This document shows positions 7,145 to 35,483 of a DNA stretch of 50,945 nt, one piece after another. A program made the translations under genes and the position numbers. Source of the stretch: a virus (lineage: Duplodnaviria; Caudoviricetes); the IMG/VR virus record IMGVR_UViG_3300024182_000004, positions 1 to 50,945 of that record; one strand, written 5' to 3'. Numbering within the stretch: position 1 is the stretch's first letter; each line of letters starts with the position of its first letter. Below the pieces are notes generated by a model, which was given only the letters and a program-made list of their open reading frames with translations, searched no databases and was not told where the DNA came from.

Positions 7145-7606
7145 ATGCCTATCACACCCTCACCAACCGGAAGCGGAGCGCCGTATTGGAGAACGGGTTG
7201 CGGCTCGTTCGTCGCCAACGGTAGCTTCGGCACCGCGAACGACTACATGCTTCAAATGTTCGTCACCTGCGCAGACCCTCCGAATACCCCGACACGCATC
7301 GCCATGGGCGACCTCGTGTTTCAATGCTGGCGGCAAGCGCAAGAGAGACAACTTCAGTTCCTCGTTCGCCACATCCGCAGAATTCTTGACGATCCGACCG
7401 ATTGGATGAAGAACGTCTCGGTTGCAAGCCTCGACTCGGCGGCGGAAATCCTCCGTTCCTTGCGAGATCTCTCCGCTCACATTACGACCCAGCGGGACCG
7501 ATATCTAGCCGCCGAGGTCATTCACGATAGAGAACTCATCGAAGGCCAGATGCTCTTCTACGTCGGCGAGAAGCTGGTCGGCGAGTGCAGCGGGTGGACG
7601 GCGTAA
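7145..7606 (+). CDS. Truncated paralog of the major capsid protein (153 aa)
   Basis: GSFVANGSFGTANDYMLQMFVTC versus capsid GSFAANGHNGTANDYMLDMWITC (17/23 aa; 56/69 nt). Confidence 0.8.
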   Translation: MPITPSPTGSGAPYWRTGCGSFVANGSFGTANDYMLQMFVTCADPPNTPTRIAMGDLVFQCWRQAQERQLQFLVRHIRRILDDPTDWMKNVSVASLDSAAEILRSLRDLSAHITTQRDRYLAAEVIHDRELIEGQMLFYVGEKLVGECSGWTA

Positions 7607-7610
7607 CCTT

Positions 7611-9731
7611 GTGGGACTCCTCGCCGGACAGACCGACTCGCCGAGCAACCTCACCGGCCCTCGCGACCGTCCGCGCCAACTCCTCCCGCTCCCGCCGTAC
7701 GACCTGATCGTTCGAGTCAGCGGCAACGCCGTCCAGCTCCTCGCCGTCGATCGAGCGCAGTTCATTACCGCCGACGGCAACCTCTCCGGGTCGACGAAGT
7801 ACATCTTCTATTGGGTCGCGATGATGGACTCTTCGACGCACGATGGGAGGCTTGAAGCGCTGAACCGCGCGCTCGTCGTCGGCAGCGTTCCGCGAACCTA
7901 CGTGAGCGGCCAGCGGCTCCCCTGCCCCCTACTCACCGACGCTCGCTTCACTAGCGGTTACTTCCTCTGCGTCGGGATGGATGACGAAGGGAACGTCTCG
8001 CAAGGAATCCTCGCGTCCTCGGCGCAATCGAGCACGATCCTCGATGGCTCCGTGCCGGGCCCGGTGACCGACCTGCAGATCAGCGAAGACGGCGAGCAGG
8101 CGAACGGCACCGTCGTTTCGGTTCTCAGCTTCACCTACGTCGCGCCGAATCCGAAGAACTCCTTCATCGGCATCCAGCCGGTTATCCGCGACTACCCGGC
8201 AGTCGGCGATCTGACGGAGTTCGGGCCTCTCGGTTACGGCGGACCAGGGGGGGGCGCCGGAGGCGGACAGCTCCGCATCGTTCCAGCCAGGCGCACCGGC
8301 GACGGGACGATCACGATCACGATGTCGTCCGTCGTCGGGACCGGGACTCACTTCACTCTCTTCGCGAAGACTGGCGACCAGATCGAGGTGTTCGGCGTTC
8401 TCGGTCGCGTTACGGTCAACAGCGACACTCTCATGACTCTCGACGTGGCGTGGCCAGCGACCGCGCCGGTGGTGACGGCGGTCGACCAGTACGTCATGAT
8501 CGGACGCTGCCGGGTGTACGCCGTAGCGCTCTCCCAGCTCCTCGCGCACACCGACGATCAGACCGATTGGCCGTATGTCGACGTCGATATCGACGGGCTC
8601 CTGTCCGCTCCGAACGCGCCAGCCGCCCTGACCCTGACTCCTTTCGGCAACGGGATCCGCGGGCAGTTCGCGCAGGTGGCCGGCGTCGGCATCCGCGGCT
8701 ATCTCGTCTTCCGTTCGACCGGTACGAGCGTCGACCTCTTCAACGCCTTCCAGATCGGCAAAGAGATCAGGCACGATCCGACGACACCGAATGGCGGCAC
8801 GATCCTCCAGTTCGAGGATACGAATTTCACGGTGTTCGAGCGCGAGCAAGGGCAGATTTTCCGGTACTACGTGAAGACGGTCAACGTCCGCGACGAATGG
8901 TCCGGACTCTTCGCGACGGCCACGGCTGCGTGCCGGCTCGACGCACCATCCGACAACAGCCCGACGAATCCAGCCCGCGAGATCGCGCTCAATCAACTAT
9001 GGGACGGCCACATCAACGGGACGGCTGGACTCGTTGGCGTCGGCGACGCTGGCCAGGACGTCAACATGGGCGGCACTCCTCCGGCTGGTCGCGCCAGGTG
9101 GGCGGGCGTCGCTGGCGGGGTGGGCGTGGCTCCCTCGCACGTGAGCTCCACGGAGGTCATCCTCGCGATGAGCGCGCCCGCCGCTGTCGGCCAGAGCGCC
9201 ATCCAGCAGGACATCGGGGGATGGGACAACGCCGCGGCGACCGACAGGCGGCTTCCGACGAACAAGCTGCTCTGCCTCCAGGTCAAGGCGCGTACGACCG
9301 GCGGCCAACCGAACGGAACGCTCTTCCTGGAGATCCAGCAGTGGAACGGCGGCGCGCAGAGCGGGGTGGCGAACTATCGCCAGCGCCTCTCGAACGACGT
9401 CCTCGACACGACGGCGACGAGCCTCGCGATTCAGGGGTCCGACATCGTCACCGACTACACGGTCTACTGGGGCGTCTTCGTCCCCGATCCGAACGTGGTA
9501 ACGACGTTCTTCCGCGCTCGCATCCACTACGACGTGACGAACTGGAACGGGGTGAACGTCTTCGTCACCGAGGCGATGCTGGCGATCGCGGAGACGTTGC
9601 CGCCGTACAATCCGCAGATGGCCGATCCTTCGATCACGTACACGCGGCCGAGCGGCGGGGCTCCTCTTCCGCATGGAGGCTTCGACCCCGACAACGGCGG
9701 CGGTCGAGACCGTATCCCGCTTCCGCCTTGA
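7611..9731 (+). CDS. Tail protein with fibronectin-III-like and carbohydrate-binding-like domains
   Basis: PGPVTDLQI, PNAPAALT, GYLVFRS and YYVKTVN..DEWS FN3-type motifs; beta-sandwich-like C-terminus. Confidence 0.6.
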   Translation: MGLLAGQTDSPSNLTGPRDRPRQLLPLPPYDLIVRVSGNAVQLLAVDRAQFITADGNLSGSTKYIFYWVAMMDSSTHDGRLEALNRALVVGSVPRTYVSGQRLPCPLLTDARFTSGYFLCVGMDDEGNVSQGILASSAQSSTILDGSVPGPVTDLQISEDGEQANGTVVSVLSFTYVAPNPKNSFIGIQPVIRDYPAVGDLTEFGPLGYGGPGGGAGGGQLRIVPARRTGDGTITITMSSVVGTGTHFTLFAKTGDQIEVFGVLGRVTVNSDTLMTLDVAWPATAPVVTAVDQYVMIGRCRVYAVALSQLLAHTDDQTDWPYVDVDIDGLLSAPNAPAALTLTPFGNGIRGQFAQVAGVGIRGYLVFRSTGTSVDLFNAFQIGKEIRHDPTTPNGGTILQFEDTNFTVFEREQGQIFRYYVKTVNVRDEWSGLFATATAACRLDAPSDNSPTNPAREIALNQLWDGHINGTAGLVGVGDAGQDVNMGGTPPAGRARWAGVAGGVGVAPSHVSSTEVILAMSAPAAVGQSAIQQDIGGWDNAAATDRRLPTNKLLCLQVKARTTGGQPNGTLFLEIQQWNGGAQSGVANYRQRLSNDVLDTTATSLAIQGSDIVTDYTVYWGVFVPDPNVVTTFFRARIHYDVTNWNGVNVFVTEAMLAIAETLPPYNPQMADPSITYTRPSGGAPLPHGGFDPDNGGGRDRIPLPP

Positions 9732-9735
9732 GATC

Positions 9736-9751
9736 GGTTACAATCTGCGCC
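9736..9751 (+). promoter_or_regulatory. Repeated promoter motif copy 2, leaderless
   Basis: GGTTACAATCTGCGCC then ATG at 9752. Confidence 0.75.
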
Positions 9752-10069
9752 ATGTTGAAGCGTGAATGGTCCCTGATCGTCGCTGCATTGAAACTTTACG
9801 AAGTCACGAGCCGCGAGTTCGGAGGTCGCCAGATACCCGTTCCGTCTGGCGAGAATGAGTGGGTCGGAATCGCCGATGAATGCGTCGAGCTTCTCAAGAA
9901 GTTGCCTCCGGAGGAACCGGCGACGCCGCCAAAACTGGTACTCACGCGCCCGGACGGTCCGCTCTTCAACGGACTCTCCGTCGAATGTGATTTCTGTCGA
10001 CCGCAGCACCGCATAATCCTCACGCTCGCCGACGACGGAACGGCGTATTGCCAGCACGAATCGCCATGA
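9752..10069 (+). CDS. Small accessory protein with C-terminal CxxC/CxH
   Basis: MLKREWSL...CDFC...YCQH; real start lies inside track ORF 8450..10069. Confidence 0.65.
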   Translation: MLKREWSLIVAALKLYEVTSREFGGRQIPVPSGENEWVGIADECVELLKKLPPEEPATPPKLVLTRPDGPLFNGLSVECDFCRPQHRIILTLADDGTAYCQHESP

Positions 10070-10542
10070 CCACCCACATCGGCCCCCCCTCGATCGACAA
10101 GAGCGGTCAGCACGGCGTTGCGGTTCATCTCCACCTCGAAGCCGGAGGCTGGCACGGCAGCTACCGGATCGCCACGCACGGCAGGAGCGCTGATTGGGTC
10201 GCCGCCGAGCATGCGCGGATCGTCGAGTGGCACAGCAGGAAAGCCGCGAAGTTGACCGAGCTGCAGTCGCTCGTCGGGATGACGATCGCGGGCGGCTTCG
10301 TCATCATGGACGCGACGGTTCGTGATCGCGGCCACGGATGCGAGTTGATCTGCCGCGCTCTCTTCGCCGGGCCACCTTCCGTTCCTCTGCGCATGGTCGA
10401 GTTCTTCGACGATCCGAGCCACGTTCCCTCGGCGCAGGCACTCGTGAACGCGATGAACGAGCGAATCCATCTTCAGGCGAAGAGCGCGGACGCTCGCGAT
10501 CAGCACGTCGCTGAGGTGCGCGGCATTCTCGGTTTGACTTGA
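10066..10542 (+). CDS. Hypothetical protein (possibly virion-associated)
   Basis: ATGA-coupled ORF. Confidence 0.65.
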   Translation: MTTHIGPPSIDKSGQHGVAVHLHLEAGGWHGSYRIATHGRSADWVAAEHARIVEWHSRKAAKLTELQSLVGMTIAGGFVIMDATVRDRGHGCELICRALFAGPPSVPLRMVEFFDDPSHVPSAQALVNAMNERIHLQAKSADARDQHVAEVRGILGLT

Positions 10543-10570
10543 TCTTCGTTTATCGGTTACACTCCGCGCC
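10534..10570 (+). promoter_or_regulatory. Sigma70-like promoter, motif copy 3
   Basis: TTGACT-N18-TACACT-CCGCGCC. Confidence 0.75.
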
Positions 10571-10749
10571 GTTAGTCCACGTCGGGTAATCGCGCGTAAC
10601 TTGTGGACTGGTGCCGAAGCAACCCGATAACGGAGGCATCACGGCAGGACGGGCCGTACATGGGTGGCCGCACCCTGAAACCGACTGGCGGCACTCTTTT
10701 GCCGTGAAAACGTGCATAATTGCCTCCGTCGAAAGGCAGGAGGTCGCGC
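10571..10749 (+). ncRNA. Structured 5' leader with alternative anti-SD pairing
   Basis: Stems 10574-80/10603-09, 10630-38/10721-29 and 10639-46/10700-07; possible pseudoknot 10582-87/10622-27. Confidence 0.6.
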
Positions 10750-11325
10750 GTGGCATTCGGGTTGTCCACAAAGGCGGACGTCAACGCCATCAAGTTCATG
10801 GGCCAGGACTGGCTCACCTCCGGAAAAGGCATCACCGACATGTCGCTCGATGACCTTCATCGGATGAGCGGCGACTTCCAAAACCAGATCAACACGGGCG
10901 GACTCACTCCGGCGCTCAACAGGCAATACGATGTAGCCGGCGGCGCGATCTCAGACAATGCCGTTCGCGCGGCGCGCTCGTTCAGGGCTGGCCTCGGCCA
11001 AACCGCGATACAGAACGGTGGAACGTTGTCGACGGCGGCTCAGGCCGAACTCGCGACGCGCAACGAGGCGAACATCAACGAAGACACCTTTACAGCGCGG
11101 AACAACCTCGCGTTCGACAAGGCGAAGGTCTCGCAGGCGGCCACCTCCGAGCTCCAGGACCGCATCCTCAAAGTCGCGGACATGGTACGCACGACTGGTC
11201 TCACGCGCGAACAGATGGGGTCCGCGGCGCTGATACAGGCGGCGGTTCTGAAGCTCCAGCAGAAGCGGGATACGCTCAACGCCTTGACGTCCATCCTCCA
11301 CGCTGGCGTTGGCGGGGGCGGCTAA
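10750..11325 (+). CDS. Putative internal virion (ejection) protein 1
   Basis: AGGAGG plus GTG; Ala/Gln/Gly-rich helical sequence; position after tail genes. Confidence 0.55.
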   Translation: MAFGLSTKADVNAIKFMGQDWLTSGKGITDMSLDDLHRMSGDFQNQINTGGLTPALNRQYDVAGGAISDNAVRAARSFRAGLGQTAIQNGGTLSTAAQAELATRNEANINEDTFTARNNLAFDKAKVSQAATSELQDRILKVADMVRTTGLTREQMGSAALIQAAVLKLQQKRDTLNALTSILHAGVGGGG

Positions 11326-11328: not shown

Positions 11329-12729
11329 GTGCCGGTACTTGGCGGGTTGTTCAATAATCAGTGGCAGGACGGCGGTGGCGACTTCGGCGTGATTGCCTCG
11401 CGCGTGGCCGAGCAGCTCGCGAATACGAACGCGGCCTCGACCAGCGAGCAGCAGAAAAAGATCACCGAGATCGCCAAGCGGCCGCAACCGGTCAGATCCG
11501 TCACTGTCACGCACAAGCCCGATGGGACGATGGACCAGATCGTCACCGTCAAGAACGCGCCGCAGCAAGATCCGGCGCAGGAAGCGCAGGCGGCCAGCGC
11601 GGGACCGCAGGCCGACTACCTTCAGCATGTTGTCGCTCCGATCATCCACGGCGGCGCTGCGACGATCTCGGCACTGCCGGATCCCGAATCGATCGACCCG
11701 GGCCTCCTCGCCAGCCGGCAAGGGCGAGAGCAACTTCTCAAACAGTCCGGGCTCGATGCGGCGTTCGGGCACAGGCCTGGCGAGGGGTTGCTCGGGATGG
11801 CGGCCCGGCTCGACAAGCGCGACGAGTTGCTCAACGACCCGGAGCGTCTCAAGCGCCTCGTCATGGCGCAGAGGTTTCGCGAACGAGCCGCCGTAGGTGA
11901 CGAGGTTCGACCGTTCCAGCAAGACCTCAACGCCATGGACACGCAGAGGCGCCAGCACGAGATGGAGGTGCGGCAGGGCATCGCCGAGGATCGTAGGCAG
12001 AAAACTGAGGCGCGGCGCGAGGAGGAGACCTTCATCGGCGACTTCACCCGTGGCGACCACAATTACGGATTCATGGACGACAAGGGTGCGCAGACGCTGA
12101 TCGATGCCGAGAAGCAGCGGTATAAGGCCCGGTTCGGCGAGGACAAAGAGATGCCCGCGTGGATGGAAACCATGATGCATTCGAGGATCATGGACGACCG
12201 CGCGAAGAACTCCTCGGACAAAGCGAAGACGCAGTTCACCCAGGACAACCAGGACCGCAGCTACGAGCGGCTGATGACGATCCTCGGGATGCAGCAGGCC
12301 AACACGCAGAGCATGATTGCGGCGCGGGATGCGAAGGCGAACACCACGCGCGTTTCCCGCCGCGACGCGATCGAGACCCCGGCGAACGAGTTGCTATCGT
12401 ACCTCGGCGACGACAGCTACGATCAGAAGTCGGTCAACCGCGCGCTGACCACGAAAGACAACGTGCTCGGGCAGGAGCGCAACAAACTCACTGCGGCGAT
12501 CCGTCTCGATTCCCCCACCGTGAACACGATGGCCACGAGCGAGCCGTGGAAGAAGAGCGAGATCGCGAAGATCATCGCGCGGATCAAAAACAACCAACAG
12601 CGCATCCGCGAGATCGACGCAGAGCGCGCAATCATTGCGAGACGCTCGGCCACGGCTACGCCAGCCGGCGCACCGCCTCCTCCTCCTCCATCCGCCGCGC
12701 CTCGTGACCCGCTCGGAATCCTTCACTAA
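11329..12729 (+). CDS. Putative internal virion (ejection) protein 2
   Basis: Coiled-coil-rich 466 aa ending DPLGIL. Confidence 0.55.
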   Translation: MPVLGGLFNNQWQDGGGDFGVIASRVAEQLANTNAASTSEQQKKITEIAKRPQPVRSVTVTHKPDGTMDQIVTVKNAPQQDPAQEAQAASAGPQADYLQHVVAPIIHGGAATISALPDPESIDPGLLASRQGREQLLKQSGLDAAFGHRPGEGLLGMAARLDKRDELLNDPERLKRLVMAQRFRERAAVGDEVRPFQQDLNAMDTQRRQHEMEVRQGIAEDRRQKTEARREEETFIGDFTRGDHNYGFMDDKGAQTLIDAEKQRYKARFGEDKEMPAWMETMMHSRIMDDRAKNSSDKAKTQFTQDNQDRSYERLMTILGMQQANTQSMIAARDAKANTTRVSRRDAIETPANELLSYLGDDSYDQKSVNRALTTKDNVLGQERNKLTAAIRLDSPTVNTMATSEPWKKSEIAKIIARIKNNQQRIREIDAERAIIARRSATATPAGAPPPPPPSAAPRDPLGILH

Positions 12730-15700
12730 TGCCCCAGATGACGACTGCTCAGTTCGCGCAGAGCGTCCGCGCGAAGTATCCGGGCTCGTACGATGATCTC
12801 GGGGATGACGATCTGGTCTCGAGGGTAGTCGCCAAACATCCTGAGTACGTGGCTGATGGGGTGGTCGAAGCGCCGAAGACTGCCGCGGCGCCGGCGCCGT
12901 CGAGATTGGACGCCGCGCGAGCGAAACTCTCTCAGCCGCAAGGCGACGGAGGCAGCGCGTGGGATTACGTGACCGGCGCCGCCAAGGGTATCGCTCGCGC
13001 GGTAGGGGTTCCGACCAGCGTCGACGAACTGAAGGCAGACGCGAAAGACTCCGTGCTCAACGTGCTCACCGCCGGAGTCGTACCGGCAGCGAACAAGGCC
13101 GTCGGGATGGTTCAGCAGGGCATCAGCGCATACCAGAGGGCGAAGGACGCTAAAGGCGCAGCGCGGACGGCCCAGGCTGTGGCGTCTGGAGTCCCGTTTG
13201 TCGGTCAGCCGGTGGCCGCCGTCGTCGATCCGGCGATCTCCGAAGCGGAGGGCTACGGGCCTACGCACGAACAGAATGTCGCCGCAGTCGAAGGGGGCGC
13301 TTCCCTCGCTACGCTCATGCTCGCTCCGAAGGTGCTCAGGAAGGTGAGCAAGCTCGCCGAGGCCCGCGCCGCGCTCAAGGCTCGAAGCGCGCCGGTGGAA
13401 GCGGCGGCGGTTAGTCCACCATCTGAAGCCATCCCTTCAGAGGCTTCCGCGCCGGCCGGACCAGTTGCCGCGCCGGCGGACGAAATTAGTCCACCCTCAA
13501 CCGAGGCCGCAAAACCGGACCAGCCGCCCACGATCCGCACCCCCGAGGCGATCTTCGCCGACATGCAGAAGGCCGAGACGGACCTGAAGGCCGCGACCGA
13601 TGCGGTTCAGCCCCGGGAATCACCAGCAGCCGCAGCCTCTCCTGCCGCCGCAGCGCCATCAGAAGCCGAGCCTCCGCCAGCCCCCCCCACGCCGCCGATC
13701 GCGCCACGGGGCGATTCTGGGACAAATGGAGGTGGTTTCGACGCTCAGGCGTACGTCAAGGAACAGGTTGCCGCCCGCGAGGCCGCCAGGAAAGCCGGAT
13801 CACCCGCTGGTGTTTTGGCTAAAGGGCGGTCGTTGCTTTCCGATATCAAGCGAAAGCTGGTCGACTCGAACGCCCCGATCGAGGATCTATTGAACGACAT
13901 CACCAAGCGCGAGAAGATCAAGCTGGCGCCATCGCGGGACATCACCAACGCAATCGACCGGGTCTACCGCGCGCCCTCCATCGCCGGCCAGTTCGCGAAG
14001 GAGAACGGGATCGAAGGTGTCATCCGTGACGTCCCTGACCTCGACACCCTCGACCAGTACCTCATAGCAAAGCAGGCGCAGACCGTAGCCGAATCTGGTC
14101 GCGAGACCGGTCGCAACCTCCCAGAGGATCGGCTCTTTATGGATACCGTGGGTCCGACCTATGAGCCGTTCGCGCAACAGATCAACACCTACTCCCAGAG
14201 GCTCCTTGACTACGCCACCGAATCCGGTCTCGTGAGTCCCGAGCTCGCAGCCAGCCTCAAAGAGCAATACCCGGATTACGTTCCCCTCCAGCGCGTCTTC
14301 GGTGAGGCCGAGAACACAGGAGCGCCCGGCGGCGGAAGTGGGCCGGCTTCAATTTCCGGACAAACGGTCGTCCGCAAATTGAAGGGGTCCGCGCGTCAGA
14401 TCGAGAGCCCGGTAGAGTCGATGATGGCGAAGACGACGGAGGCGTTCACGCAGGGCGAGAAGAACAAGGCGGGGCAGCTGCTGGCTGGCTACCGAGATCT
14501 ACCCGGCAACCCGTTCCAGATTGAGGAAGTGATGGGCGACAAGGTGCCGACCGGCGCCCATACGATCTCGTACCTCGACCAGGGCGTGAAGCGAACCTTC
14601 ACGGCGCCGAAGCTCATCGCTAACGCCGCAAAGGCGCTCGATGTCCAGCGCCTCGGCATCGTCGGGCGAATCCTCGCGACTCCAGTTCGCGTGGCGAAGG
14701 TCGGCATCACCGGCATCAACCCGGCCTTTCTGGCCTCGAACATCGCGAAAGACCAGATCACTGGATTCATCAACTCCGAGCGCGGGATCAATACCCTCGC
14801 CAATCCGATGACCTTCAGCAAGGCGCTATTCCAGGCCGTCGGCCACGGCGATCTCTTTGACGAGATGATCCGTGAGGGGGCGCTCGGGACCTCCTTCGAC
14901 ATGGCGAGGAATCAGATCCCAGCCACGGTCGCTTCGATCCGGAGCACGCGCTCGCTGATGACACGCGCCGCCTACATGGTCCGACATCCGAGCCAGGTAT
15001 TGCGCGCGGCCGAAGACGTTCTTGCTCGAGGCGAAGAGTTCACCCGCATCCAGCACTACATCGCCGGCAAGGAAGGCGCTCTGCAGTCAGGCCTTCCAGA
15101 GGAAGAGGCGCGCATCGCCGGCGCCAGAGCAGCTCGCGAGAACACTGTCAACTTCGCCCGCCGCGGCGAATGGGGGACGGTCCTCAACTCCACATTTCTT
15201 TACCTTAACGCGCAGATCCAGGGCACGCGCACGCTCCTTCGGAACCTCCAGTCCCGGCCGATGGCCACGGGGGCGAAGATCGGAACGGCGGTCTTCATGC
15301 CGGTAGCGATGGCTACGGCGTGGAACATGAAAGACCCGGCGCGACGCAAGGCCTACCAGGACATTTCGGAGTTTGAGCATCAGAACAACATCATCCTCGT
15401 GCCGCCGAACCCTACCCAGAACGAGAAAGGGCAGTGGCGCGTCCTAAAGATCCCCCTCTCCCAGGAGATCAACAACCTCGCCGACGTACCGCGGCGCGTC
15501 ATCGAGCACGCCTTCGGTGCTGACCCGATTCGCGCTGGCCAGGTCGCGGAGGCGCTGGTCGGAACGGTATCGCCGGTCGGGACGACAAAGGGGCAGGTGT
15601 TCTCGACGATGACTCCGCAGTTCATCAAGCCAGCGCTCGAAATCGCAATGAACAAGAACATCTTCACGGGTCGCGAGATCGTCCCTCAGTCGCCCGGCTC

Positions 15701-27821: not shown

Positions 27822-27825
27822 CTGA

Positions 27826-27862: not shown

Positions 27863-28039
27863 ACGTAGTTTGCGTGAACGGGGCAGGGGAGTTCGCCGTC
27901 GCCGTGAAAACATTCGCCAGCGCCTCGGCACATGTCGTCGATGCAGATCACCAAGGTAACCGGTGCCGTCGCAGATACAGCGCGGATCATCATCGTCCAT
28001 CGGATCGTCGTCGAGGTCGAGAAACTGTTCGTCATTCAT
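27859..28039 (-). pseudogene. Frameshifted small Cys-rich protein
   Basis: MNDEQF...CICDGTGY then, after removing one base near 27955, LVICIDDMCRGAGECFHGDGELPCPVHANYV*; span is 181 nt (3n+1). Confidence 0.6.
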
Positions 28040-28242: not shown

Positions 28243-28727
28243 TTCGCGCGCTCCAGTATTTCTTCCGGCAGGGCATCTACCCTGACCATGTGAGTGATTT
28301 CGCTTTTCATTTCAAAGCACAATCCGCAGATGAGTAGCGATGCCCGCGTACCTCGCGCGATCTGCTGGCAGTCGGGGCATTGGAACTTCAGAAGCCGCGT
28401 CTTGCTCGCCTTCACGGCCGCCCGCTCGATTGCAGAATTCGACGGCTGAGCACGGCCATGCACGATAGACGGAGTGAAGAGAGTCTCGAGAAGGTCCAGA
28501 CACTCCACTGTCGACACTCGCCGCGACGTGAAGCCGCGATCCCAGAGGAGCTCGCCTACTTCATCGATCGTGCGGCCGGCTTTGCGGCAGTAGCGGAGTC
28601 TGGTCCCTACGTTGCTGAATAGCTGGCGGCACTCCGCAGGGAACAGGGGGTCCACTCGGACCCCTTGCTCTCGAATCGCTTCGAGGACGAGGCGCATGTC
28701 GTCGACGATCAGGACTTGCGCGTTCAC
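28239..28727 (-). CDS. Hypothetical protein with C-terminal Zn ribbon
   Basis: GTG start after GGAG; KFQCPDC...LICGLC. Confidence 0.6.
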   Translation of the reverse strand: MNAQVLIVDDMRLVLEAIREQGVRVDPLFPAECRQLFSNVGTRLRYCRKAGRTIDEVGELLWDRGFTSRRVSTVECLDLLETLFTPSIVHGRAQPSNSAIERAAVKASKTRLLKFQCPDCQQIARGTRASLLICGLCFEMKSEITHMVRVDALPEEILERAK

Positions 28728-28960
28728 GGCCTGATCTCCGGCGTTTCCGCTCCGCAGAACGTACAGCAGTGCTCGACGTCGCCGAAGATGTCTTTCTGCC
28801 ATCCGGACTCGGGATGTAGACACGCCGGCGCCGGCACGACCTGGGCCGGCGGAGGGGCAAAGAGCATGCTCTGTACCGCCCTCGGTTGCTGAGCGTGCAG
28901 GGTGATGCGGAACGATGGCGCACGTCCGTCGAAGTGGCCGCGGGCGATGGACGCGCTCAC
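28724..28960 (-). CDS. Hypothetical protein
   Basis: GTG start inside a 16-bp junction repeat; CLH...CTFC. Confidence 0.5.
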   Translation of the reverse strand: MSASIARGHFDGRAPSFRITLHAQQPRAVQSMLFAPPPAQVVPAPACLHPESGWQKDIFGDVEHCCTFCGAETPEIRP

Positions 28961-29262
28961 AATGCACGCTCCTGCATAGCCTTCGTCTCGACGATGACCG
29001 TCCCGCTTATCCACGCGGTAGGAATTCCACCGGCGGACCAGTACAACTTCGACGCCTCTTCGTTAAGGTCTACGTTCTTGAAACTGCCGTCTTCGTCGCA
29101 CCACAGATGCCCGCCGCCGGGCAGGGCTATGTGCTCCACGGTGGTGCAGCCGTTGCCGATGATCGCGCACATTTCGCGCAACCTGCCGGCCGTATCGCGT
29201 GGTTTGCTCTTGTAGGTGTATCCGGTCCTGGTTCCATCGGGGGTGATGATCTCGGTTTTCAC
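28957..29262 (-). CDS. DUF3846-like protein
   Basis: IITPDG...VEHI...LWCDEDG...LNEEAS...ISGTVIV. Confidence 0.7.
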   Translation of the reverse strand: MKTEIITPDGTRTGYTYKSKPRDTAGRLREMCAIIGNGCTTVEHIALPGGGHLWCDEDGSFKNVDLNEEASKLYWSAGGIPTAWISGTVIVETKAMQERAL

Positions 29263-29459
29263 AATGCACGCTCCCGCGCGTCTTGCGCGTCAGGGCCAGC
29301 AACCGCCTGCAGGTGTACCGCGTGCTCGCCCCTGGCCTGCTGAGCCGTCAGGTTGCGAGCTGACCATTTCCCGCATGAGCACGTAGCATCGTATTTCGTT
29401 TCGCGCCTGGCGCGGTCGACGCGGCCGTTTGAAGTGAGTCTGAGTGTGTGAGGGTTCAT
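29259..29459 (-). CDS. Small Zn-binding protein
   Basis: H...ATCSCGKW...HAVH. Confidence 0.6.
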   Translation of the reverse strand: MNPHTLRLTSNGRVDRARRETKYDATCSCGKWSARNLTAQQARGEHAVHLQAVAGPDAQDARERAL

Positions 29460-29671
29460 GATGCGCCGCCGGTCGACTTAATTCGCGGATCATGGATGAA
29501 TTTGCCCTCCGCATCCTTGCGAAACCAGCGCGTAGAAGAAACGGCGCATCGCACCGTAGCGTCTCCTGATTTCTTGCCGTCCATTGTTGACAACTGGTAC
29601 AAACGGGCGGATAGGTTAACCGGGATCACGGGATACTTTTCGCCAGCGATTTCTACATACAGGTTGTGCAT
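29456..29671 (-). CDS. Hypothetical protein
   Basis: AGGAGG SD; coupled to next gene. Confidence 0.6.
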   Translation of the reverse strand: MHNLYVEIAGEKYPVIPVNLSARLYQLSTMDGKKSGDATVRCAVSSTRWFRKDAEGKFIHDPRIKSTGGAS

Positions 29672-29891
29672 TGTTTGTAACCTCCTTTCTGCCCTCCGAA
29701 CGTCTCACGCGCTGGAGGGCAGGAGCAGGCTACGATTCAGTGTTTATTGGCGACCGCGCCACACTCGCAATACACATAGCACGGTCCCTCACTTGCGACC
29801 ACGTGAACGTGTGCGGGTTCATCGAACCCAGGCAAGCGACACAGCGCGCAGACATGCCAGACGAACAGATCGGCATATATGGCGACGGGCA

Positions 29892-30140
29892 TCACAGCAC
29901 CTCCGCGAGAGATTCCCACGCGGGGAATGTCCACACCGGAACGTGACTCGGTGCCGGGGCGTACGCGCGTTCTGCTATCTCCCTTGCAGCGACTTCGACT
30001 CCCGCCCTCCGCTCACTCCACCAATCGTAATGTGCGCGGCAGACCTTGAACGTCGTTCCGTTATGCATCGTCAGGAGTCTAATCTTTCCATTACTGCATA
30101 CGTCCTGTGCGAAGAATATGAAATCGCATGTGGCGGGCAT
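29892..30140 (-). CDS. Hypothetical protein
   Basis: TGATG-coupled to the upstream gene. Confidence 0.5.
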   Translation of the reverse strand: MPATCDFIFFAQDVCSNGKIRLLTMHNGTTFKVCRAHYDWWSERRAGVEVAAREIAERAYAPAPSHVPVWTFPAWESLAEVL

Positions 30141-30613
30141 CAGAGCCACCTTTGAGACAGCGCGTATCCGCCGTCTTTGTGCATCATGTTGCCGTCTTTC
30201 TCCGAGCCAGCCTTCCATGTCCGTTTGTTGCCATCGCGACCGCTATAGACATATTCGCCTCGATGTTCACTTGACCGGCAACTCTCCCCGCTGCACGTAT
30301 ACCCCTCGCGGAATAGAACACTCGAAAGGTTGTAGACAAGCGAGAATCCCATGTCCATGCCGCAACCACCGACCACGATCCCGTCATGCTTGCCGATGCG
30401 CTCGCCACACGCCAGCGCCACATTGCCGTCCAAGTGCAGCATTCCTTCGCTTCCGTCCTTGTGCATCGCCTTCAAGCTGATTTCGCGCTGCATACCGCTC
30501 CTCGACACGTTGCGAAGGATCGTATAGACCGTGTCCCCCGGTTTGAGCCATTCCCTCAAACGTTCGATCGCGTCCTGCTTCTCGGTCTCGCGGACTGCCT
30601 TTTTGGTTGCCAT
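30140..30613 (-). CDS. Conserved phage early protein (GCGMDMGF motif)
   Basis: LKPGDTVYTILRNVSRSGMQREI and VGGCGMDMGFSLVYNL. Confidence 0.75.
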   Translation of the reverse strand: MATKKAVRETEKQDAIERLREWLKPGDTVYTILRNVSRSGMQREISLKAMHKDGSEGMLHLDGNVALACGERIGKHDGIVVGGCGMDMGFSLVYNLSSVLFREGYTCSGESCRSSEHRGEYVYSGRDGNKRTWKAGSEKDGNMMHKDGGYALSQRWL

Positions 30614-30669
30614 GGCGTCTCTCGCTTTCCTGTTGTCTGTTTGGATGGCCCGTAATTGAGTCACTCCGC

Positions 30670-30698
30670 ACAACCGTCGACCAGTGGTCGACGGTTGT
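30670..30698. repeat. Perfect inverted repeat (13-bp stem)
   Basis: ACAACCGTCGACC-AGT-GGTCGACGGTTGT just downstream of the ComEA-like stop. Confidence 0.75.
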
Positions 30699-30704
30699 AC
30701 GTTG

Positions 30705-31088
30705 TTACTCGACCACAAGCGCGCCGTTCGCGTACTGAATCACTTCCCGATCCGCACCGACGCGCGCCTGACATTGCGCACCGGACTCGCCAGCTCGGCA
30801 CGTAACGATTTTCGCGGCCGCCGTGGTCGCGCCGGAAGTCACGACGAAATGAAACATCACCTTGAGGCGCGCATCCTTGATGCCCTTGACGTACAGGAGC
30901 GAGCCGGGATTCGCGTACGGACGACCGGCGACGATCCGCGCAGCCATTACGGTGCCGACGCCGGGGAGGAACTGGAGCTGAGCCAGTGTGGCCGTGTTGA
31001 CGTTCACGGACGGCGGCGCCGCGGCGTGAGGTTGCGCGTTGATCGTGGCAGCGGACAAGAGCGCGAGGGCGAGGATTGCGCGCCTCAT
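30705..31088 (-). CDS. ComEA-like helix-hairpin-helix DNA-binding protein with signal peptide
   Basis: MRRAILALALLSAATINA-QP; VNVNTATLAQLQFLPGVG...AARIV...RPY...L..VKGI. Confidence 0.85.
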   Translation of the reverse strand: MRRAILALALLSAATINAQPHAAAPPSVNVNTATLAQLQFLPGVGTVMAARIVAGRPYANPGSLLYVKGIKDARLKVMFHFVVTSGATTAAAKIVTCRAGESGAQCQARVGADREVIQYANGALVVE

Positions 31089-31228
31089 GCTGTCCACCCT
31101 TCACCCTCGGGCGCGAAATCGCCCCCCGTCATCCACGCAACGAAATGAGCGATCAACGCGAAACGTGTAACGTAGTATGCCTTGCCGTCAATCGGATTGA
31201 ACACCTCGAACTCGACTCGCATTTTCAT
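31085..31228 (-). CDS. First early gene, 47 aa (not in ORF track)
   Basis: GGAGG SD; MKMRVEFEVFNPIDGKAYYV...; ATGA overlap with the ComEA-like gene. Confidence 0.6.
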   Translation of the reverse strand: MKMRVEFEVFNPIDGKAYYVTRFALIAHFVAWMTGGDFAPEGEGWTA

Positions 31229-31248
31229 GACTGCCTCCATGACCGTGC

Positions 31249-31277
31249 AAGTTACGTCCTCAATTCGAATACGTCAA
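31249..31277 (-). promoter_or_regulatory. Leftward sigma70-like early promoter
   Basis: TTGACG-N17-TAACTT heading the minus-strand arm. Confidence 0.65.
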
Positions 31278-31279
31278 GC

Positions 31280-31960
31280 GAAATCTCTCACTTTCTCAAA
31301 CAAAGTCGCGAGACTGGAGGAGCGTAATTCGGCTTACGGCATACTTTCGCCTCGTTTGTCAAGTCAGGACGCAATCCCTCTCCCAGGGAATCACATCGGC
31401 GACGACAACGTTTAAACACTCCGCTCGCGCTGGGGTGGTGAAGAACCAGCCTCCGCGCCGGCCCCGCCTCGTGCTCTGCCACCCTGTCTGACAGGAATCG
31501 CATCACGAGGCGTCTATCCCCTCCCTCCTCGATAGTGACAATCTTCGTCACGCCAACACTGACACTTTCTGTCACTGCTGGCTGCTCGAAGGCCTTGACG
31601 GTTGTCGATTCCGGGCCTCGACGCTACCCCTACCTCGCCCCTACCTGGCCGCCGGAACAGGACCGTTCGGAGCTGTCCCATGCATAGCATGCAACGCGTT
31701 TAAACGCCTATGCATCAATGAGATAGCGTCATCACCACTACCACGCTGCGCACACCAGAATCGACCCCCACCGGGTCTCCCCGGGCTTCCCTTTCCCTCC
31801 GTTTGGGACCCCCTGTAGCTCTCCATCCGACGATCTCCCTCATCGGTGCCTATGTCACCAGAAAAGGACAAAGGAATCAGCGAGTTACGAGACTTGAGGT
31901 TCGAAAAAGGCTGGCTCGGGAGAAAGCGCGAAAAAATCTGATTTTGTTTCACATGGAACA
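31280..31960. other. Divergent non-coding region (candidate packaging site, physical end or origin)
   Basis: Strand switch point; no convincing ORF; palindromes and A/T tracts. Confidence 0.5.
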
Positions 31961-31962: not shown

Positions 31963-31978
31963 GGTTACAATCCGCGCC
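31963..31978 (+). promoter_or_regulatory. Repeated promoter motif copy 5
   Basis: GGTTACAATCCGCGCC; ATG at 31983. Confidence 0.75.
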
Positions 31979-31982: not shown

Positions 31983-32078
31983 ATGAGCGAATACAACTTC
32001 TACCTTCCTCTGGCGCTGGTACTGGTCGGCGCCTTCCTGGCGTATGTTTGGTGGACGTGGAAGAGGGCGACGAGGTGA
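31983..32078 (+). CDS. Small membrane peptide (31 aa)
   Basis: MSEYNFYLPLALVLVGAFLAYVWWTWKRATR; GTGA overlap with the methyltransferase. Confidence 0.55.
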   Translation: MSEYNFYLPLALVLVGAFLAYVWWTWKRATR

Positions 32079-33511
32079 GAAGGCCTCTGGCGATCGACCT
32101 GTGCTGCGGTCTTGGCGGTTGGACCGAAGGTCTGCTGGCCGAGGGTTGGGATGTCGTCGGCTTCGATATCGAGCGCCATCGGTACGGCGCGCATCAGTAT
32201 CCCGCGCAGCTCGTGCTTCAGGACATCTTGACCCTCGACGGCCGCCAGTTCCGCAGCGTGGCGTCGCTGATCGTCGCCTCGCCACCGTGCCAGCGCTACA
32301 GCTACATGGCGATGCCGTGGTCGCGAGCAAAGGCGCTGATCGCCTGGCACCGAGAGGATGGCCACCCTGAGCGCATCGTCGAGCTCAACGCGCTGTTCAA
32401 CGCCTGCCTGCGGATTGGTCGCGAGGCTGGCTGTCCGATCGTCATCGAGAATGTGCGCGGGGCGATTCCTTGGGTGGGGCGCTCGCGTTGGAATTACGGC
32501 TCATTCCACCTTTGGGGCGATGTGCCGGCGCTGATGCCGATCACATTTCGAAGATCAGTCATGAAGTCCGGCGTCACGCATCGAGCCGGTACAAATTTCC
32601 ACCGCAAGACTCCCGCCGGATCATGGGATCCGACGCGAGCGAATTTCGTCCAAGGAACGAAGGAATGGGTCGAGGAATGGGTCGATGACTCGATCAAGGT
32701 CGGAGATGTCGGCTGGCGTCGCGACAACGATATTCATCCGGTCGGCTTCAATGTGATGGCTACGCGTCAGATGCTCGCCGATGATTCGGTCAAGGTCGGC
32801 GGCTCAGCCGGTGACGATTGGTTCACCCACCACAACCGCCCCGAATTCGATCGCCGCGCAGGCCTGACAGTGCCGGTCGAATGCGAGGGCTGCGGAACGT
32901 CCGTGGTGATGAGCAGCTGGACGATCGAAGCTGACCTCAACGAATTCGGGCGCGCCCACTCCGGGTGCATCGGATCGAAAGTCATTGTTGGCAGAGCGGA
33001 GATACGCGAACATGGAGGAACAGATGGAACAGAGGATTTGCGCGGGCTGTGCAGTGATGGAGCCGTGGCAACACAGATGCTTCGGAGCGAAGGATTGCGA
33101 CTGTCCGGAGTGTCGGGAAGCGGACCGGTTGTTCCCGACGTATCCCGACGAACTTCCGAATTGGAAATCGCCGGACGTGACGGGCTGAAGGTGCCGAGCC
33201 GGGACGGTAGACGCACCGATCCAGGCAACGGCGCACGCTTCACCAGCGACGAGGACCGCGCCACGAAGAACTCCGGCGGCTCCTGGTTCAACGTCGCGCA
33301 CAACACGGAGAGCGGGAAGGGGCAGAATCCGGATGGGCGGAAGGTCACCGGCGATTGGTTCGGCGACTATGCGGCGATGAAAGAATCCGGCACGATCTCA
33401 CCTGGACGAATGCATGGCAAAGGAAGTCAGGCCCGCAAAGCCGCATCGGCGCGGATCGCGAAGATACCGCTGGCTCTGGCGCGGCACATCGCGAGGGTCT
33501 ACCACCCATGA
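32075..33511 (+). CDS. C5 cytosine DNA methyltransferase-like protein with long modular variable region
   Basis: Motif I IDLCCGLGG, motif IV SPPCQRYS, motif VI IENV; C-terminal IAKIPLALARHIA. Confidence 0.8.
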   Translation: MRRPLAIDLCCGLGGWTEGLLAEGWDVVGFDIERHRYGAHQYPAQLVLQDILTLDGRQFRSVASLIVASPPCQRYSYMAMPWSRAKALIAWHREDGHPERIVELNALFNACLRIGREAGCPIVIENVRGAIPWVGRSRWNYGSFHLWGDVPALMPITFRRSVMKSGVTHRAGTNFHRKTPAGSWDPTRANFVQGTKEWVEEWVDDSIKVGDVGWRRDNDIHPVGFNVMATRQMLADDSVKVGGSAGDDWFTHHNRPEFDRRAGLTVPVECEGCGTSVVMSSWTIEADLNEFGRAHSGCIGSKVIVGRAEIREHGGTDGTEDLRGLCSDGAVATQMLRSEGLRLSGVSGSGPVVPDVSRRTSELEIAGRDGLKVPSRDGRRTDPGNGARFTSDEDRATKNSGGSWFNVAHNTESGKGQNPDGRKVTGDWFGDYAAMKESGTISPGRMHGKGSQARKAASARIAKIPLALARHIARVYHP

Positions 33512-33717
33512 TCGCCGACTGCCCTGACTGCGGCCGGGTGGAGTTGTACCGCGGCAGGTGTCCGGTGTGCGGCGGGGAGTCGTGGGGTGTGCCAGGTGGG
33601 ATTCCGGCGCGGTCGGCGAAGAAACTGCCGTTCCTGCAGCTCATCAAGGCCGTAAAGAAGCCGGCGGCGGTGCAGAGGTCGATCGCGGCGTTCTCGAGGT
33701 TCAGGAGGAGAGGGTGA
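33508..33717 (+). CDS. Small Zn-finger protein
   Basis: CPDC...CPVC; coupled at both ends. Confidence 0.6.
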   Translation: MIADCPDCGRVELYRGRCPVCGGESWGVPGGIPARSAKKLPFLQLIKAVKKPAAVQRSIAAFSRFRRRG

Positions 33718-34340
33718 GTCTCTTCCGAACCATCGTCGCGGATCCGCCGTGGCCGATCAAATGGACCGGAGGGGCGGCTCGGCGAACGAATGGCCGCAAG
33801 GTCGTCTATTGGAACTCGCGCTTCAAGACGAAGCTGCCGTACGAAACGATGTCGATCGACGCGATCTGCGCGCTGCCGGTTGGCGACATGGCCGATCGAG
33901 ACGCTCACCTCTACCTCTGGATTCCCGACCAGTTCCTTATCGCTGGCGACGGAGCGCGGGTAGCTGCAGCGTGGGGCTTCAAGCCGATTCGCCTACTCGT
34001 CTGGAAGAAAACCGGGTTCGGTCTCGGCCGGTTCCCGCGCCCACAGCACGAGGCCGTGATCGTTTGCAAGCGTGGGAGCCTCCCGTTTCGCGTGGCAGAC
34101 GTCGGTAGCGTCCAGACGTGGAAGATGCCCTACAAGCGCATCGTGACGGCCAGCGGGCGGCCTGGCGCGGCGCGCGATCACTCGCGGAAGCCGGAAGAAC
34201 TACAGGATCTGGTCGAGCTAGCCAGCCACGGCCCCTACCTCGAGCTTTTCGCCCGTCGCGCCCGTCCCGGGTGGTCATCGTGGGGCGACCAGGTCGCGTC
34301 CGATGTGACGCTTCCCTTGCCGGATCAGCGCCTCTTCTGA
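33714..34340 (+). CDS. MT-A70-family adenine methyltransferase
   Basis: IVADPPW, YETMS, HLYLW, HSRKP, YLELFARR...GW..WGD. Confidence 0.92.
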   Translation: MSLFRTIVADPPWPIKWTGGAARRTNGRKVVYWNSRFKTKLPYETMSIDAICALPVGDMADRDAHLYLWIPDQFLIAGDGARVAAAWGFKPIRLLVWKKTGFGLGRFPRPQHEAVIVCKRGSLPFRVADVGSVQTWKMPYKRIVTASGRPGAARDHSRKPEELQDLVELASHGPYLELFARRARPGWSSWGDQVASDVTLPLPDQRLF

Positions 34341-34349
34341 GAAAAGAAA

Positions 34350-34375
34350 AGCCCCGGGTCGAGGCCGGGGCTCTT
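34350..34375. terminator. Intrinsic terminator-like hairpin
   Basis: AGCCCCGG-gtcgagg-CCGGGGCT flanked by an A-tract and CTT. Confidence 0.65.
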
Positions 34376-34415
34376 GCTGTAGCGAATCTCCCCAAGGTGT
34401 AGCGTTTTGCCCCAT

Positions 34416-34464
34416 TGTGCGGAAAATCGCACAGTTGACTCGCCGACACTCGAGGTCGTAAGCT
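34416..34464 (+). promoter_or_regulatory. Promoter with upstream palindromic operator
   Basis: TGTGCG-N6-CGCACA at 34416-33, then TTGACT-N18-TAAGCT. Confidence 0.55.
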
Positions 34465-34469
34465 CGCCG

Positions 34470-34850
34470 ACAGAATGACGATCCAAGCAAGGTCACTCCG
34501 GGGGATGTATCAGTTTGCTCCTCCGACGGAAACGAGAAGACCACCCGCGAAGGTGGCCTTTCGTCTTTCCGGAGCGCCGGTGGTTACGAGGTCAGCCGGC
34601 GCAACAAAAGCTCTCTGTCACGGGAGCGAAAAGCACTATAAAACATTTGCGTCGACCTCGCAAGTATCTACCCCGAGAGGCTGGGAGCTCGTACATCCGC
34701 GAGCCAATCGATTCCCGCAGAGTCGAGAGATAAGAGTTGCCGGGTATTTGAGGGACACGACTGACGGGGCCCGGCGGTCCTAGACCTGGAAGTGGGGTGG
34801 TGTTTGGGTAGCGTCCGGGGTTGCTCCAACCCCTCATCCTGGACGCTGTA
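34470..34850 (+). ncRNA. Candidate structured ncRNA of about 380 nt
   Basis: Series of hairpins (34528-70, 34574-602, 34810-47 and others); no coding-like ORF. Confidence 0.5.
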
Positions 34851-34886
34851 TAGACTCTGGAATATTTTGTGCTCGAAATCTTCCGC

Positions 34887-34922
34887 TTGCATGGCGCGTG
34901 AGGGTCGGTTACACTCCGCGCC
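34887..34922 (+). promoter_or_regulatory. Sigma70-like promoter, motif copy 6, leaderless
   Basis: TTGCAT-N17-TACACT-CCGCGCC-ATG. Confidence 0.78.
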
Positions 34923-35483
34923 ATGTGGACATCGAAAGCAACGATTCCTCCGATCAAGATCAGGCTGGCCGCGTTGAAGGTTGCGTTAGCTGATGCTGCC
35001 GATGGGCGTGTCGGCCGTCTTCAACAACAGCTTGAAATCGCAGTGCACGATCTCGACACCCTCCTCGCCGCCTATTACGACCAGGTCCGCTACAACGCCA
35101 CGGCGATCGAGATCATCCGCACCCTCAGCGACAACCCGGCAACCGAGAACGCGCGCTGCAGCGGCCGGACGGCGCGGTTGGCGCTTCGAGCCCTCATCGC
35201 TCTTTCGGCCGGCCATGACGTCGCGGTCGTCGGCCTGAACGTGCGGCATGCGCTCGAGATGAAGCTCAAGATCGAGCGGAACGCGATGAAGTGGCACATC
35301 CCCTACGACGGCGGCATGTACGCGCCGCGGGAGTCCAGGGGCGAGCGAGCGCCGATGGTGCGAGCCTTCACGCCCGACGAGGACCGCAGTGGCTTTCGCG
35401 GCGTCGTCCTGGTCGATCACGCAGTCATCGAACGAATGGAAGCGGTCGCCGGTGTGGGGCCGGTTGTAGAGGAGGTTGTCTGA
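34923..35483 (+). CDS. Degenerate P-loop (terminase-ATPase-like) protein
   Basis: ARCSGRT (Walker A-like), VAVVG, SGFRGVVLVDH (Walker B-like). Confidence 0.55.
   Translation: MWTSKATIPPIKIRLAALKVALADAADGRVGRLQQQLEIAVHDLDTLLAAYYDQVRYNATAIEIIRTLSDNPATENARCSGRTARLALRALIALSAGHDVAVVGLNVRHALEMKLKIERNAMKWHIPYDGGMYAPRESRGERAPMVRAFTPDEDRSGFRGVVLVDHAVIERMEAVAGVGPVVEEVV

Follow-up and report, generated by a model that had tools for sequence, protein, structure and literature searches.

A start-codon-fused promoter core heads probable gene cassettes, one of them with capsid-derived cargo, in a soil phage

The viral record IMGVR_UViG_3300024182_000004 of IMG/VR (Duplodnaviria; Caudoviricetes) was analysed over its whole length of 50,945 bp, hereafter the window. 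It is a complete record of a 50.9-kb soil phage with a GC content of ~62%. A first-pass annotation had singled out two genes that lie directly behind the same promoter motif, 7145–7606 (product gp7145) and 34923–35483 (product gp34923), and had read them as possible parts of a coordinated decoy system, in which inert mimics of the phage's own capsid and terminase proteins are made early from host-type promoters and saturate CapRel or Avs sensors. The analysis reported here favours another account, which we regard as the probable one. The motif would be an ordinary sigma-70/sigmaA-type promoter core that heads eight units of unrelated content on both strands, and the units that it heads in the virion block would be small, swappable insertions, present, absent or replaced between near-identical phages. 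One such cassette would encode gp7145, an accessory protein that joins an old copy of the capsid protein's most conserved block to a novel, better-conserved helical region. gp34923 would be a separate matter, a member of a small free-standing P-loop-like family of early or replication regions, and there would be no coordinated decoy system.

The motif is a 16-nt core, GGTTACAMTCYGCGCC, in which a −10 hexamer TACAMT (TACAAT or TACACT) is joined to seven fixed GC-rich bases. At up to two mismatches the window holds eight copies, counting both strands, whereas 0.13 were expected and none of 100 shuffled sequences reached eight. The 19-mer that includes the ATG gave six matches at up to three mismatches (0.02 expected), and the pattern TACANT-N7-RTG gave four (0.29 expected). 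The motif first annotated before two genes is therefore real, and more widespread than had been claimed. Hexamers resembling a −35 element lie 17–18 nt upstream of six of the eight copies (TTGACT three times, and TTGCAT, ATGACA and TTGTTT), which bears out the description of the promoter as host-type. The copies and their immediate surroundings are as follows.

7129–7144, plus strand: copy 1, GGTTACAATCTGCGCC, with −10 TACAAT and no good −35; its first base doubles as the G of the TAG stop that ends the upstream gene, and ATG 7145 follows directly
9736–9751, plus strand: copy 2, identical to copy 1 over 19 nt when the ATG is included; heads 9752–10069
9752–10069, plus strand: 105-aa ORFan behind copy 2, with no family match
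10533–10697, plus strand: copy 3 segment of 165 bp, with −35 TTGACT, the motif at 10555–10570 and ~125 nt that contain no open reading frame (ORF) start
27841–27826, minus strand: copy with one mismatch, −35 TTGACT and an 18-nt spacer; ATG 4 nt on, opening a 126-aa ORFan (27441–27821)
31963–31978, plus strand: copy at the start of the rightward gene block; ATG 4 nt on, opening a 31-aa hydrophobic ORF (31983–32078), after which come DNA methyltransferase genes
34907–34922, plus strand: copy before the gp34923 gene, with −35 TTGCAT and a 17-nt spacer
36363–36434, plus strand: composite of a terminator hairpin, −35 TTGACT and the motif (36419–36434, one mismatch); drives the Shine–Dalgarno-led gene 36450–36767
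47481–47496, plus strand: copy after the portal gene, with −35 ATGACA and a 17-nt spacer; heads 47497–47826 (109 aa, hydrophobic N-terminus)

An ATG stands directly behind four of the copies (7145, 9752, 34923 and 47497) and 4 nt further on behind two (31983, and 27821 on the minus strand). One of the remaining two precedes a gene led by the Shine–Dalgarno sequence AGGAGG (36450), and the other, at 10555, has no ORF start behind it; the gene that comes after this copy has its own AGGAGG-N6-GTG at 10750. A small RNA was considered for the stretch behind copy 10555 and was discarded, the predicted fold of 10571–10700 being no better than that of shuffled sequences (z 0.0). Because the motif heads such varied arrangements on both strands, it appears to be a general promoter type of the phage, of the sigma-70/sigmaA form used by the host. 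A motif held in common does not make the genes at 7145 and 34923 functionally linked, as had been supposed, since it also heads six unrelated units, among them one Shine–Dalgarno-led and one minus-strand gene. Given the spacing between the −10 hexamer and the start codon, which leaves no room for a ribosome-binding site, transcripts would begin at the start codon or a few bases before it and would be leaderless. With the ATG built into the promoter, an ORF of any kind placed after it would be expressed without a ribosome-binding site. Another phage lineage also has a start of the leaderless type, behind a different promoter sequence: on a distant viral contig (L005, 4240–4268) a member of the gp34923 family starts directly behind TATTAT-N7-ATG.

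It could also be argued that the 16 nt are the target of a phage-specific factor, whether an activator, a sigma-like protein or a repressor, and that the eight units form its regulon. Conservation across all 16 nt, including the spacer between −10 and start, exceeds the requirement of a host sigma factor. The core also seems specific to this lineage within IMG/VR, where the 30 matches found elsewhere are isolated, no contig carries two copies and none of the matches is followed by a start codon. Set against a regulon are the host-type −35 hexamers of six copies and the failure to find a phage RNA polymerase or sigma factor among the window proteins scanned, several ORFans aside. The likeness between copies could equally stem from a recent spread of cassettes by recombination. 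We consider the regulon unlikely, and retain the general promoter core as the preferred reading.

Relatives of the phage differ at the motif itself. Related DNA is present in soil-metagenome runs, and contigs from four soil runs were compared with window positions 6500–10800 (4.3 kb), which contain three motif copies. A structural difference was found at the motif edge at all three sites, between flanks that are 93–98% identical. At site 7129, a contig of run X15 (record 24) runs from 7128 to 7611 across just four other letters, and motif and gene 7145–7606 are exactly absent; its flanks, of 132 nt (nine differences) and 191 nt (eight differences), are 93–96% identical to the window. Run X13 retains the gene (record 11, 98% identical), and run X12 holds the same strain as the window. 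At site 10555, two contigs (X13 record 15 and X15 record 29) skip 10533–10697, the 165 bp that begin at the −35 and have the motif inside. At site 9736, X13 record 14 is 97% identical over 9161–9754, after which come 64 nt that do not resemble the window, the break falling after the G of the motif's ATG. The unit missing at the first site is as follows.

7129–7610, plus strand: indel cassette, comprising the motif and gene 7145–7606, absent in X15 record 24

Because relatives differ at all three motif sites, the motif-headed units of the virion block appear to be cassettes subject to insertion, deletion or replacement, moron-like and exchangeable, and gp7145 appears to be dispensable. Recombination at the promoter core may be the mechanism of exchange, by analogy with the PeSL cassettes of T4-type phages (PMC2839356). 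The hexamers GGTTAC and GTAACC stand inverted at the ends of the 7129–7608 unit and occur 13 and 9 times, respectively, in the window.

Several points weigh against this picture. The loss of 7129–7610 is known from a single 327-nt contig (depth 6.1) of one run. X13 record 14 is likewise one contig, which also diverges at its other end (9161), and the break at 9754 could reflect mosaic divergence rather than a clean exchange of genes. The units are without their own terminators: the next gene begins 4 nt past 7606 with no terminator-like site there, and terminator-like counts at the motif units are no higher than the shuffle expectation. A hairpin with a T-run occurs only at 36363–36434, the other seven copies being free of a stem-loop terminator. 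Because the cassettes lack terminators, their transcripts are expected to read into the downstream virion genes; the motif units are not classical insulated morons, and their promoters may simply boost a long virion operon. Copies 7129 and 9736 have no −35-like hexamer, and promoter activity, start sites and timing at the motif copies are all deduced from sequence. Finally, lysogeny would be conjectural: no repressor was found in the window, and the serine recombinase ORF (37237–38127) is short, with an in-frame stop after it.

The cargo of the cassette at 7129 is the only fragment of the phage's own morphogenesis proteins that we detected. The features that bear on its origin are listed here.

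7145–7606, plus strand: gp7145 gene, 153 aa, leaderless-type start, between two tail-fibre-like genes
4913–7129 and 7611–9731, plus strand: two tail-fibre-like proteins
7172–7354, plus strand: capsid-homologous segment of gp7145, residues 10–70
7355–7474, plus strand: unique, predicted-helical middle of gp7145, residues 71–110
50069–50945 and on to 258 across the record ends, plus strand: major capsid gene (major head protein, phrog_9953, 2e-29), likely start ATG 50093
50588–50794, plus strand: matching capsid segment, capsid residues 166–234

Within the window, blastp aligned gp7145 residues 10–73 with residues 174–245 of the major head protein ORF at 39% identity (E 4e-13), and hhalign aligned gp7145 residues 10–70 with capsid residues 166–234 at 98.3% probability (E 1.3e-14, 61 residues); the homology extends no further. 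At the DNA level, 7201–7275 and 50629–50703 are 81% identical over ~75 nt. The annotation of 7145–7606 as a capsid-protein fragment therefore stands. The capsid start was placed at ATG 50093 because a 100%-identical database protein (P0033) has 327 aa. The capsid family profile matches solved HK97-type capsid proteins (6j3q_A, 2e-4; 7f38_A, 3e-3), and the profile alignment puts the spine helix at ~103–139. The segment in common with gp7145 begins some 30 residues later and, by the usual order of the fold, would be the beginning of the axial domain. Nothing in gp7145 aligns to capsid residues 1–150: the N-arm, the E-loop and the spine helix are absent, and the protein does not possess the full HK97 fold. 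It does keep positions that are invariant or nearly so in the capsid family (W171, S181, A183, N185/G186, G189 and D193). A resemblance of the gp7145 C-terminus to that of the capsid protein (GxxxGW[T/S]) was set aside as a visual hint, the hhalign alignment stopping short of it.

The segment is 36–44% identical to all 11 close capsid proteins and 24–33% identical to two distant ones. Identical codons were used at 14 of 20 conserved residues against 10.7 expected (P 0.07), a figure that lends no support to recent gene conversion involving the fragment and its capsid counterpart. Because it is about equally distant from the 11 close capsid proteins and shows no excess of identical codons, the segment appears to be an old, diverged copy. 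The reading frame has the codon-position GC of coding regions (0.58/0.47/0.70), and its GC at third codon positions looks foreign, at 0.70 as compared with 0.87 for 4913–7129 and 0.83 for 7611–9731. Among 5.8 billion proteins gp7145 has one homolog, P0001 (151 aa, 75% identity); identity along the protein is 69% in the capsid-derived part, 90% in the helical middle (36 of 40 residues) and 70% in the C-terminal part. Since P0001 keeps the ORF at this identity, with uneven constraint, gp7145 seems to be under selection. It is nevertheless rare, with one homolog cluster as against 12 non-self clusters for the capsid protein. A search of the ESM Atlas with the whole protein and with residues 66–153 gave best scores of 0.85–0.86, under the threshold for a lead, the Atlas model itself being of low confidence. 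A complex prediction for capsid protein and gp7145 scored 0.00, with the partner's own fold uncertain, and so weighs neither for nor against binding.

The pattern of conservation admits a reading in which the capsid likeness is a historical by-product, an illegitimate recombination having supplied the 5' piece, and in which the function, if any, lies in the helical part. The helical middle is indeed better conserved than the capsid-derived part, the duplication appears old with no sign of continuing conversion with the capsid gene, and the gene is rare among relatives and seemingly dispensable. However, the residues that were kept are those (nearly) invariant in the capsid family, which suggests that a capsid-like surface was retained, and the ORF is intact in P0001. 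This explanation is, in our judgement, rather improbable. That gp7145 has no function at all is a further alternative.

A second reading starts from the position of the gene. Lying between two tail-fibre-like genes in the virion block and probably co-transcribed with them for want of a terminator, gp7145 could be a non-essential virion or assembly accessory, such as a decoration protein, a vertex-associated protein or a fibre anchor, that docks through its capsid-like surface. Presence in one phage and absence from a close relative is typical of decoration proteins too, as with Dec of phage L as compared with P22, and capsid paralogs are known as special capsid components, as is T4 gp24 beside gp23. 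This is countered by the small extent of what is shared, ~61 residues of the capsid fold with N-arm, E-loop and spine helix missing, by the location of the best-conserved part outside the capsid-derived region, and by a codon composition unlike that of the surrounding virion genes. We therefore judge a virion role of this kind to be fairly unlikely.

The role that we find likeliest for gp7145, and propose tentatively, is an accessory function in conflict that exploits its likeness to the capsid protein. Accessory, dispensable genes often serve phage–host or phage–phage conflict. Capsid proteins trigger several bacterial defences, and the Tab moron considered below blocks virion assembly of rivals; gp7145 is to be seen in this context. 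Much as Tab acts on tails, it could disturb the assembly of capsids by competing relatives; alternatively, it could occupy a host factor that recognises the capsid block. The role is argued by inference. Apparently dispensable, separately promoted and drawn from the conserved capsid core, gp7145 is a candidate for a new use of structural-protein likeness in phage conflict. We found no literature on a phage-encoded capsid-fragment decoy, or on a truncated capsid paralog acting in anti-defence or superinfection exclusion; in the reviews consulted, the word 'decoy' is used either for DNA mimics, of which Ocr is one, or for decoy nucleotides of the host. Taken to its furthest, the idea would make gp7145 a capsid mimic on a mobile, leaderless expression socket that caps or poisons the capsomers of rivals or soaks up a host protein, with the 16-nt core and ATG serving soil phages as a universal recombination handle for swapping conflict genes. 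In this full form it is a doubtful, speculative proposal.

The second gene of the first-pass annotation belongs elsewhere.

34923–35483, plus strand: gp34923 gene, 186 aa; N-terminal helical hairpin and C-terminal reduced P-loop-like alpha/beta core

gp34923 had been described as carrying degenerate terminase-like ATPase motifs. The motifs exist, a Walker-A-like SGRTAR at residues 80–85 and a Walker-B-like VVLVDH at 161–166, and they are conserved; the link to terminase found no support in sequence and, as set out below, weak support in structure. The protein has seven close relatives, and a profile search of 1.84 billion representatives returned a family of 26 proteins, all of 88–219 aa, with no long ATPase among them. 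An alignment of 23 sequences shows SGRT(T/A)R and GFRGVTLVDH to be almost without variation. Of the 22 sequences that cover the Walker-A-like motif, 21 have Arg and only P0008 has Lys, at the place where a terminase Walker A has GK(S/T). Asp165 is invariant, while His replaces Glu in nearly all members and an hhhhDE Walker B is lacking. Because the motifs are nearly invariant across the family, they appear to be a conserved family trait and not the remains of a decayed terminase copy.

gp34923 had no terminase match in Pfam or PHROG, and sequence and profile searches of the Protein Data Bank (PDB) found nothing. Its E-value to PHROG 5437, of unknown function, was 0.084, and that of a family member on contig L006 was 5e-6. 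Compared with the phage's own large terminase (TerL), it reached an hhalign probability of 0.1%, and the idea that it derives from that terminase was abandoned. The L006 gene lies between phrog_862 and an exonuclease, beside a DNA polymerase, in the replication module of another phage, and the genomic context of the family thus points away from packaging. The close homologs P0003–P0008, at up to 89% identity, align with no more than ~75% of gp34923. Its first ~45 residues vary from one relative to another, a pattern suggestive of recombination close to the promoter copy, slightly inside the gene's 5' end.

An AlphaFold model of the whole gp34923 was of moderate quality, with a predicted local distance difference test (pLDDT) value of 66, and a model of the core alone (residues 57–186) was better, at 76.8. 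In the core model a helix starts at the SGRT loop, which no strand precedes, and is accompanied by two helices and three short strands that run parallel. Foldseek found nothing in the PDB at E ≤0.001. An exhaustive VIA search with the core ranked the ATPase domain of P74-26 TerL (4zni_A) first, at Z 6.1 with 115 aligned residues and a root-mean-square deviation of 4.3, and the T4 gp17 ATPase (2o0h) third, at Z 5.6; chain E of the Avs3–terminase complex came eighth (Z 5.4; the protein of that chain is unchecked), and further down were a herpesvirus terminase (30th) and full-length gp17 (46th). SF1/SF2 helicases within one Z unit made up most of the other matches listed, and no chain attained Z 8, so that all lie below the zone of trust. 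With the whole model, P74-26 TerL ATPase was the only match covering the core among the 50 listed (Z 6.6). These listings do not speak against fold families that fall outside them. The first rank of a TerL ATPase in both searches speaks against the separation of gp34923 from terminases, and distant kinship is possible but unproven. Among viral predicted structures (BFVD) there was nothing at E ≤0.001, none of the 50 matches listed was named a terminase, the best were small uncharacterised phage proteins (E 0.014–0.05), and the named larger ones were mostly SF2 helicases. A fair statement from the model is that gp34923 would be a reduced ASCE/RecA-like P-loop domain.

These results bear on the coordinated decoy system as a whole. 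In its favour, the most conserved block of the capsid protein is present in gp7145, whose gene follows a host-type promoter core; the core of gp34923 has conserved Walker-like motifs and a TerL ATPase as its first-ranked solved structure; and both proteins are small and match no catalytic family. A search for further mimics was made by comparing the 71 predicted proteins with four targets (a capsid profile, a gp34923-family profile, TerL and portal). Of these 284 hhalign comparisons, 280 were parsed and the other four were self-hits, and likeness to capsid, terminase or portal at 5% probability or more was reached only by gp7145 against capsid. Two more genes of the second operon had been thought capsid-like or terminase-like, and this could not be upheld: the genes at 35483–35719, 35716–35949, 35814–36335 and 36450–36767 had no family match apart from a sub-threshold small-terminase match at 36393–36767 (phrog_4044, E 0.024). 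One of 71 proteins therefore resembles a phage morphogenesis protein, and a system of several such fragments reduces to a single one. The family-wide Arg-for-Lys P-loop of gp34923, its replication-module relative, the absence of terminases from the listed BFVD matches and the six unrelated units behind the motif all stand against the system, as does the reasoning that a mimic bearing the sensed epitope would be expected to trigger the sensor, not to silence it. We consider the coordinated system very improbable, although gp7145 by itself may conceivably act as a decoy. What survives of the interpretation is one apparently separately promoted, capsid-derived, small accessory protein. Genes that have a promoter motif in common need not form a system, and a small protein is not shown to be a terminase fragment by its Walker-like motifs.

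The remaining features of the genome are these.

31,963 via the record ends to 17,193, plus strand: rightward block
32048–33511 and 33558–34340, plus strand: two DNA methyltransferases, in the rightward block
Downstream of the methyltransferase genes, in the rightward block: the '34923 operon'
37237–38127, plus strand: serine recombinase, 296 aa, with a Resolvase domain and the start of a Recombinase domain
43007–45274, plus strand: TerL (phrog_38, 1e-40)
45271–47478, plus strand: portal, weakly SU10-like
12729–16010: LPD38 protein, 1093 aa (PF18857, 4e-23), with matches to segments of giant 'polyvalent' phage proteins (phrog_9854, 1e-39)
17,301–31,100: leftward block, with RecT, a YqaJ-type exonuclease, an SbcC-like ATPase, a DnaC-like loader and RusA

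An exact 127-nt repeat (window 1–127 and 50819–50945) cuts the major capsid gene. The gene spans the record ends, for which reason the repeat most likely represents an overlap left by circular assembly rather than a physical terminal repeat. Megablast found no close DNA relative among annotated phages; no IMG/VR relative was found through the capsid protein, TerL, the close gp34923 family or the gp7145 profile, and a wide gp34923 profile returned two distant loci only. A metagenome scan gave a single distant capsid gene, on the 627-kb contig L004, and a genome collection gave no match to the capsid or gp34923 profiles. No Rfam match was obtained across the window.

Between the leftward and rightward blocks lie ~860 bp (31100–31960) that contain no convincing ORF, with a lower GC content (0.58), which end at motif copy 31963 and are probably a regulatory or origin region. 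After the MT-A70 methyltransferase gene there is a strong hairpin (34347–34375), within ~570 bp of poorly coding DNA (34340–34906) whose ORF 34475–34783 has flat codon-position GC; promoter copy 34907 comes next. The frame of the serine recombinase is open for another 63 codons after its stop (38131–38322), and the region 37237–38525 may encode either a short enzyme of the invertase type or a large serine recombinase that a single in-frame stop interrupts. A 447-aa protein (41132–42475) with a signal-peptide-like N-terminus (MRRLLLVAIFLSAASASAQ) and no family match is encoded among the packaging and virion genes. Behind the post-portal motif copy, a small ORF (47823–48080) overlaps the stop of 47497–47826 (ATGA), and its N-terminus (IDLDAIRARNE...) looks by eye like those of several gp34923-family members (P0012, P0003).

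Comparison with known systems was made for each of the two proteins and for the cassettes. The gp34923 core resembles the TerL ATPases of P74-26 and T4 gp17 in its best-ranked fold and in the order of its Walker-A-like and Walker-B-like motifs. It differs in lacking a strand before the P-loop in the model, in having Arg for Lys and His for Glu, and in its size, there being neither a C-terminal RNase-H-like nuclease domain nor a terminase family match.

In the case of gp7145, the premise of a decoy is that a short, conserved capsid block can be recognised by a host protein. Lit recognises the Gol peptide of T4 gp23. CapRel and type I Thoeris are cited as capsid-sensing defences (PMC12409349, 10.64898/2026.06.04.730250), and share that premise. 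Neither a defence of this kind nor a phage capsid-fragment inhibitor was linked to this phage, and PADLOC gave no match for the 10 cassette and operon proteins, gp34923 included.

Tab, the tail assembly blocker of Pseudomonas phage JBD26, is described as a moron that keeps competing phages from assembling virions (PMC10884400). On that description, and with no sequence comparison made, Tab and gp7145 are alike in being small, of no known family and encoded inside a late operon with a promoter of their own, a putative one in the case of gp7145. Tab differs in lying on the opposite strand, in targeting the tape measure protein, in having no likeness to a structural protein and in its pairing with an anti-Tab gene; for gp7145 a partner of this kind was not identified.

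Morons in general, of which HK97 gp15 is an example, are described as small accessory genes with their own promoter, inserted between late-operon genes and present or absent among relatives (PMC3594210). The 7145–7606 cassette is like them as so described: it lies exactly between two late-operon genes, is present or absent in relatives, and has a composition unlike that of its neighbours. Its own promoter is putative: a −10 TACAAT and core stand directly before ATG 7145, in a copy that lacks a −35-like hexamer. The cassette is unlike morons in having no terminator of its own and in its leaderless-type start, fused to the promoter core. The mobile regulatory cassettes of T4-type phages termed PeSL (PMC2839356) offer the other parallel. 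As they are described, repeated sigma-70-like promoters there bound indels or replacements of non-essential ORFans among relatives, as at three of three sites here, and one copy here (36363–36434) is likewise a terminator–promoter composite. The present case differs in that the phage is a high-GC soil phage of ~51 kb and not T4-type, most copies have no stem-loop, and the promoter is fused to the start codon. A promoter–ATG core would explain how leaderless genes are shuffled as plug-in units, and its presence at the edges of gene gain, loss and replacement would extend the idea of mobile regulatory cassettes from T4-type phages to a high-GC soil phage. The phage presents a variation on elements of known kinds (morons, mobile promoter cassettes) and loads one of them with an unusual cargo.

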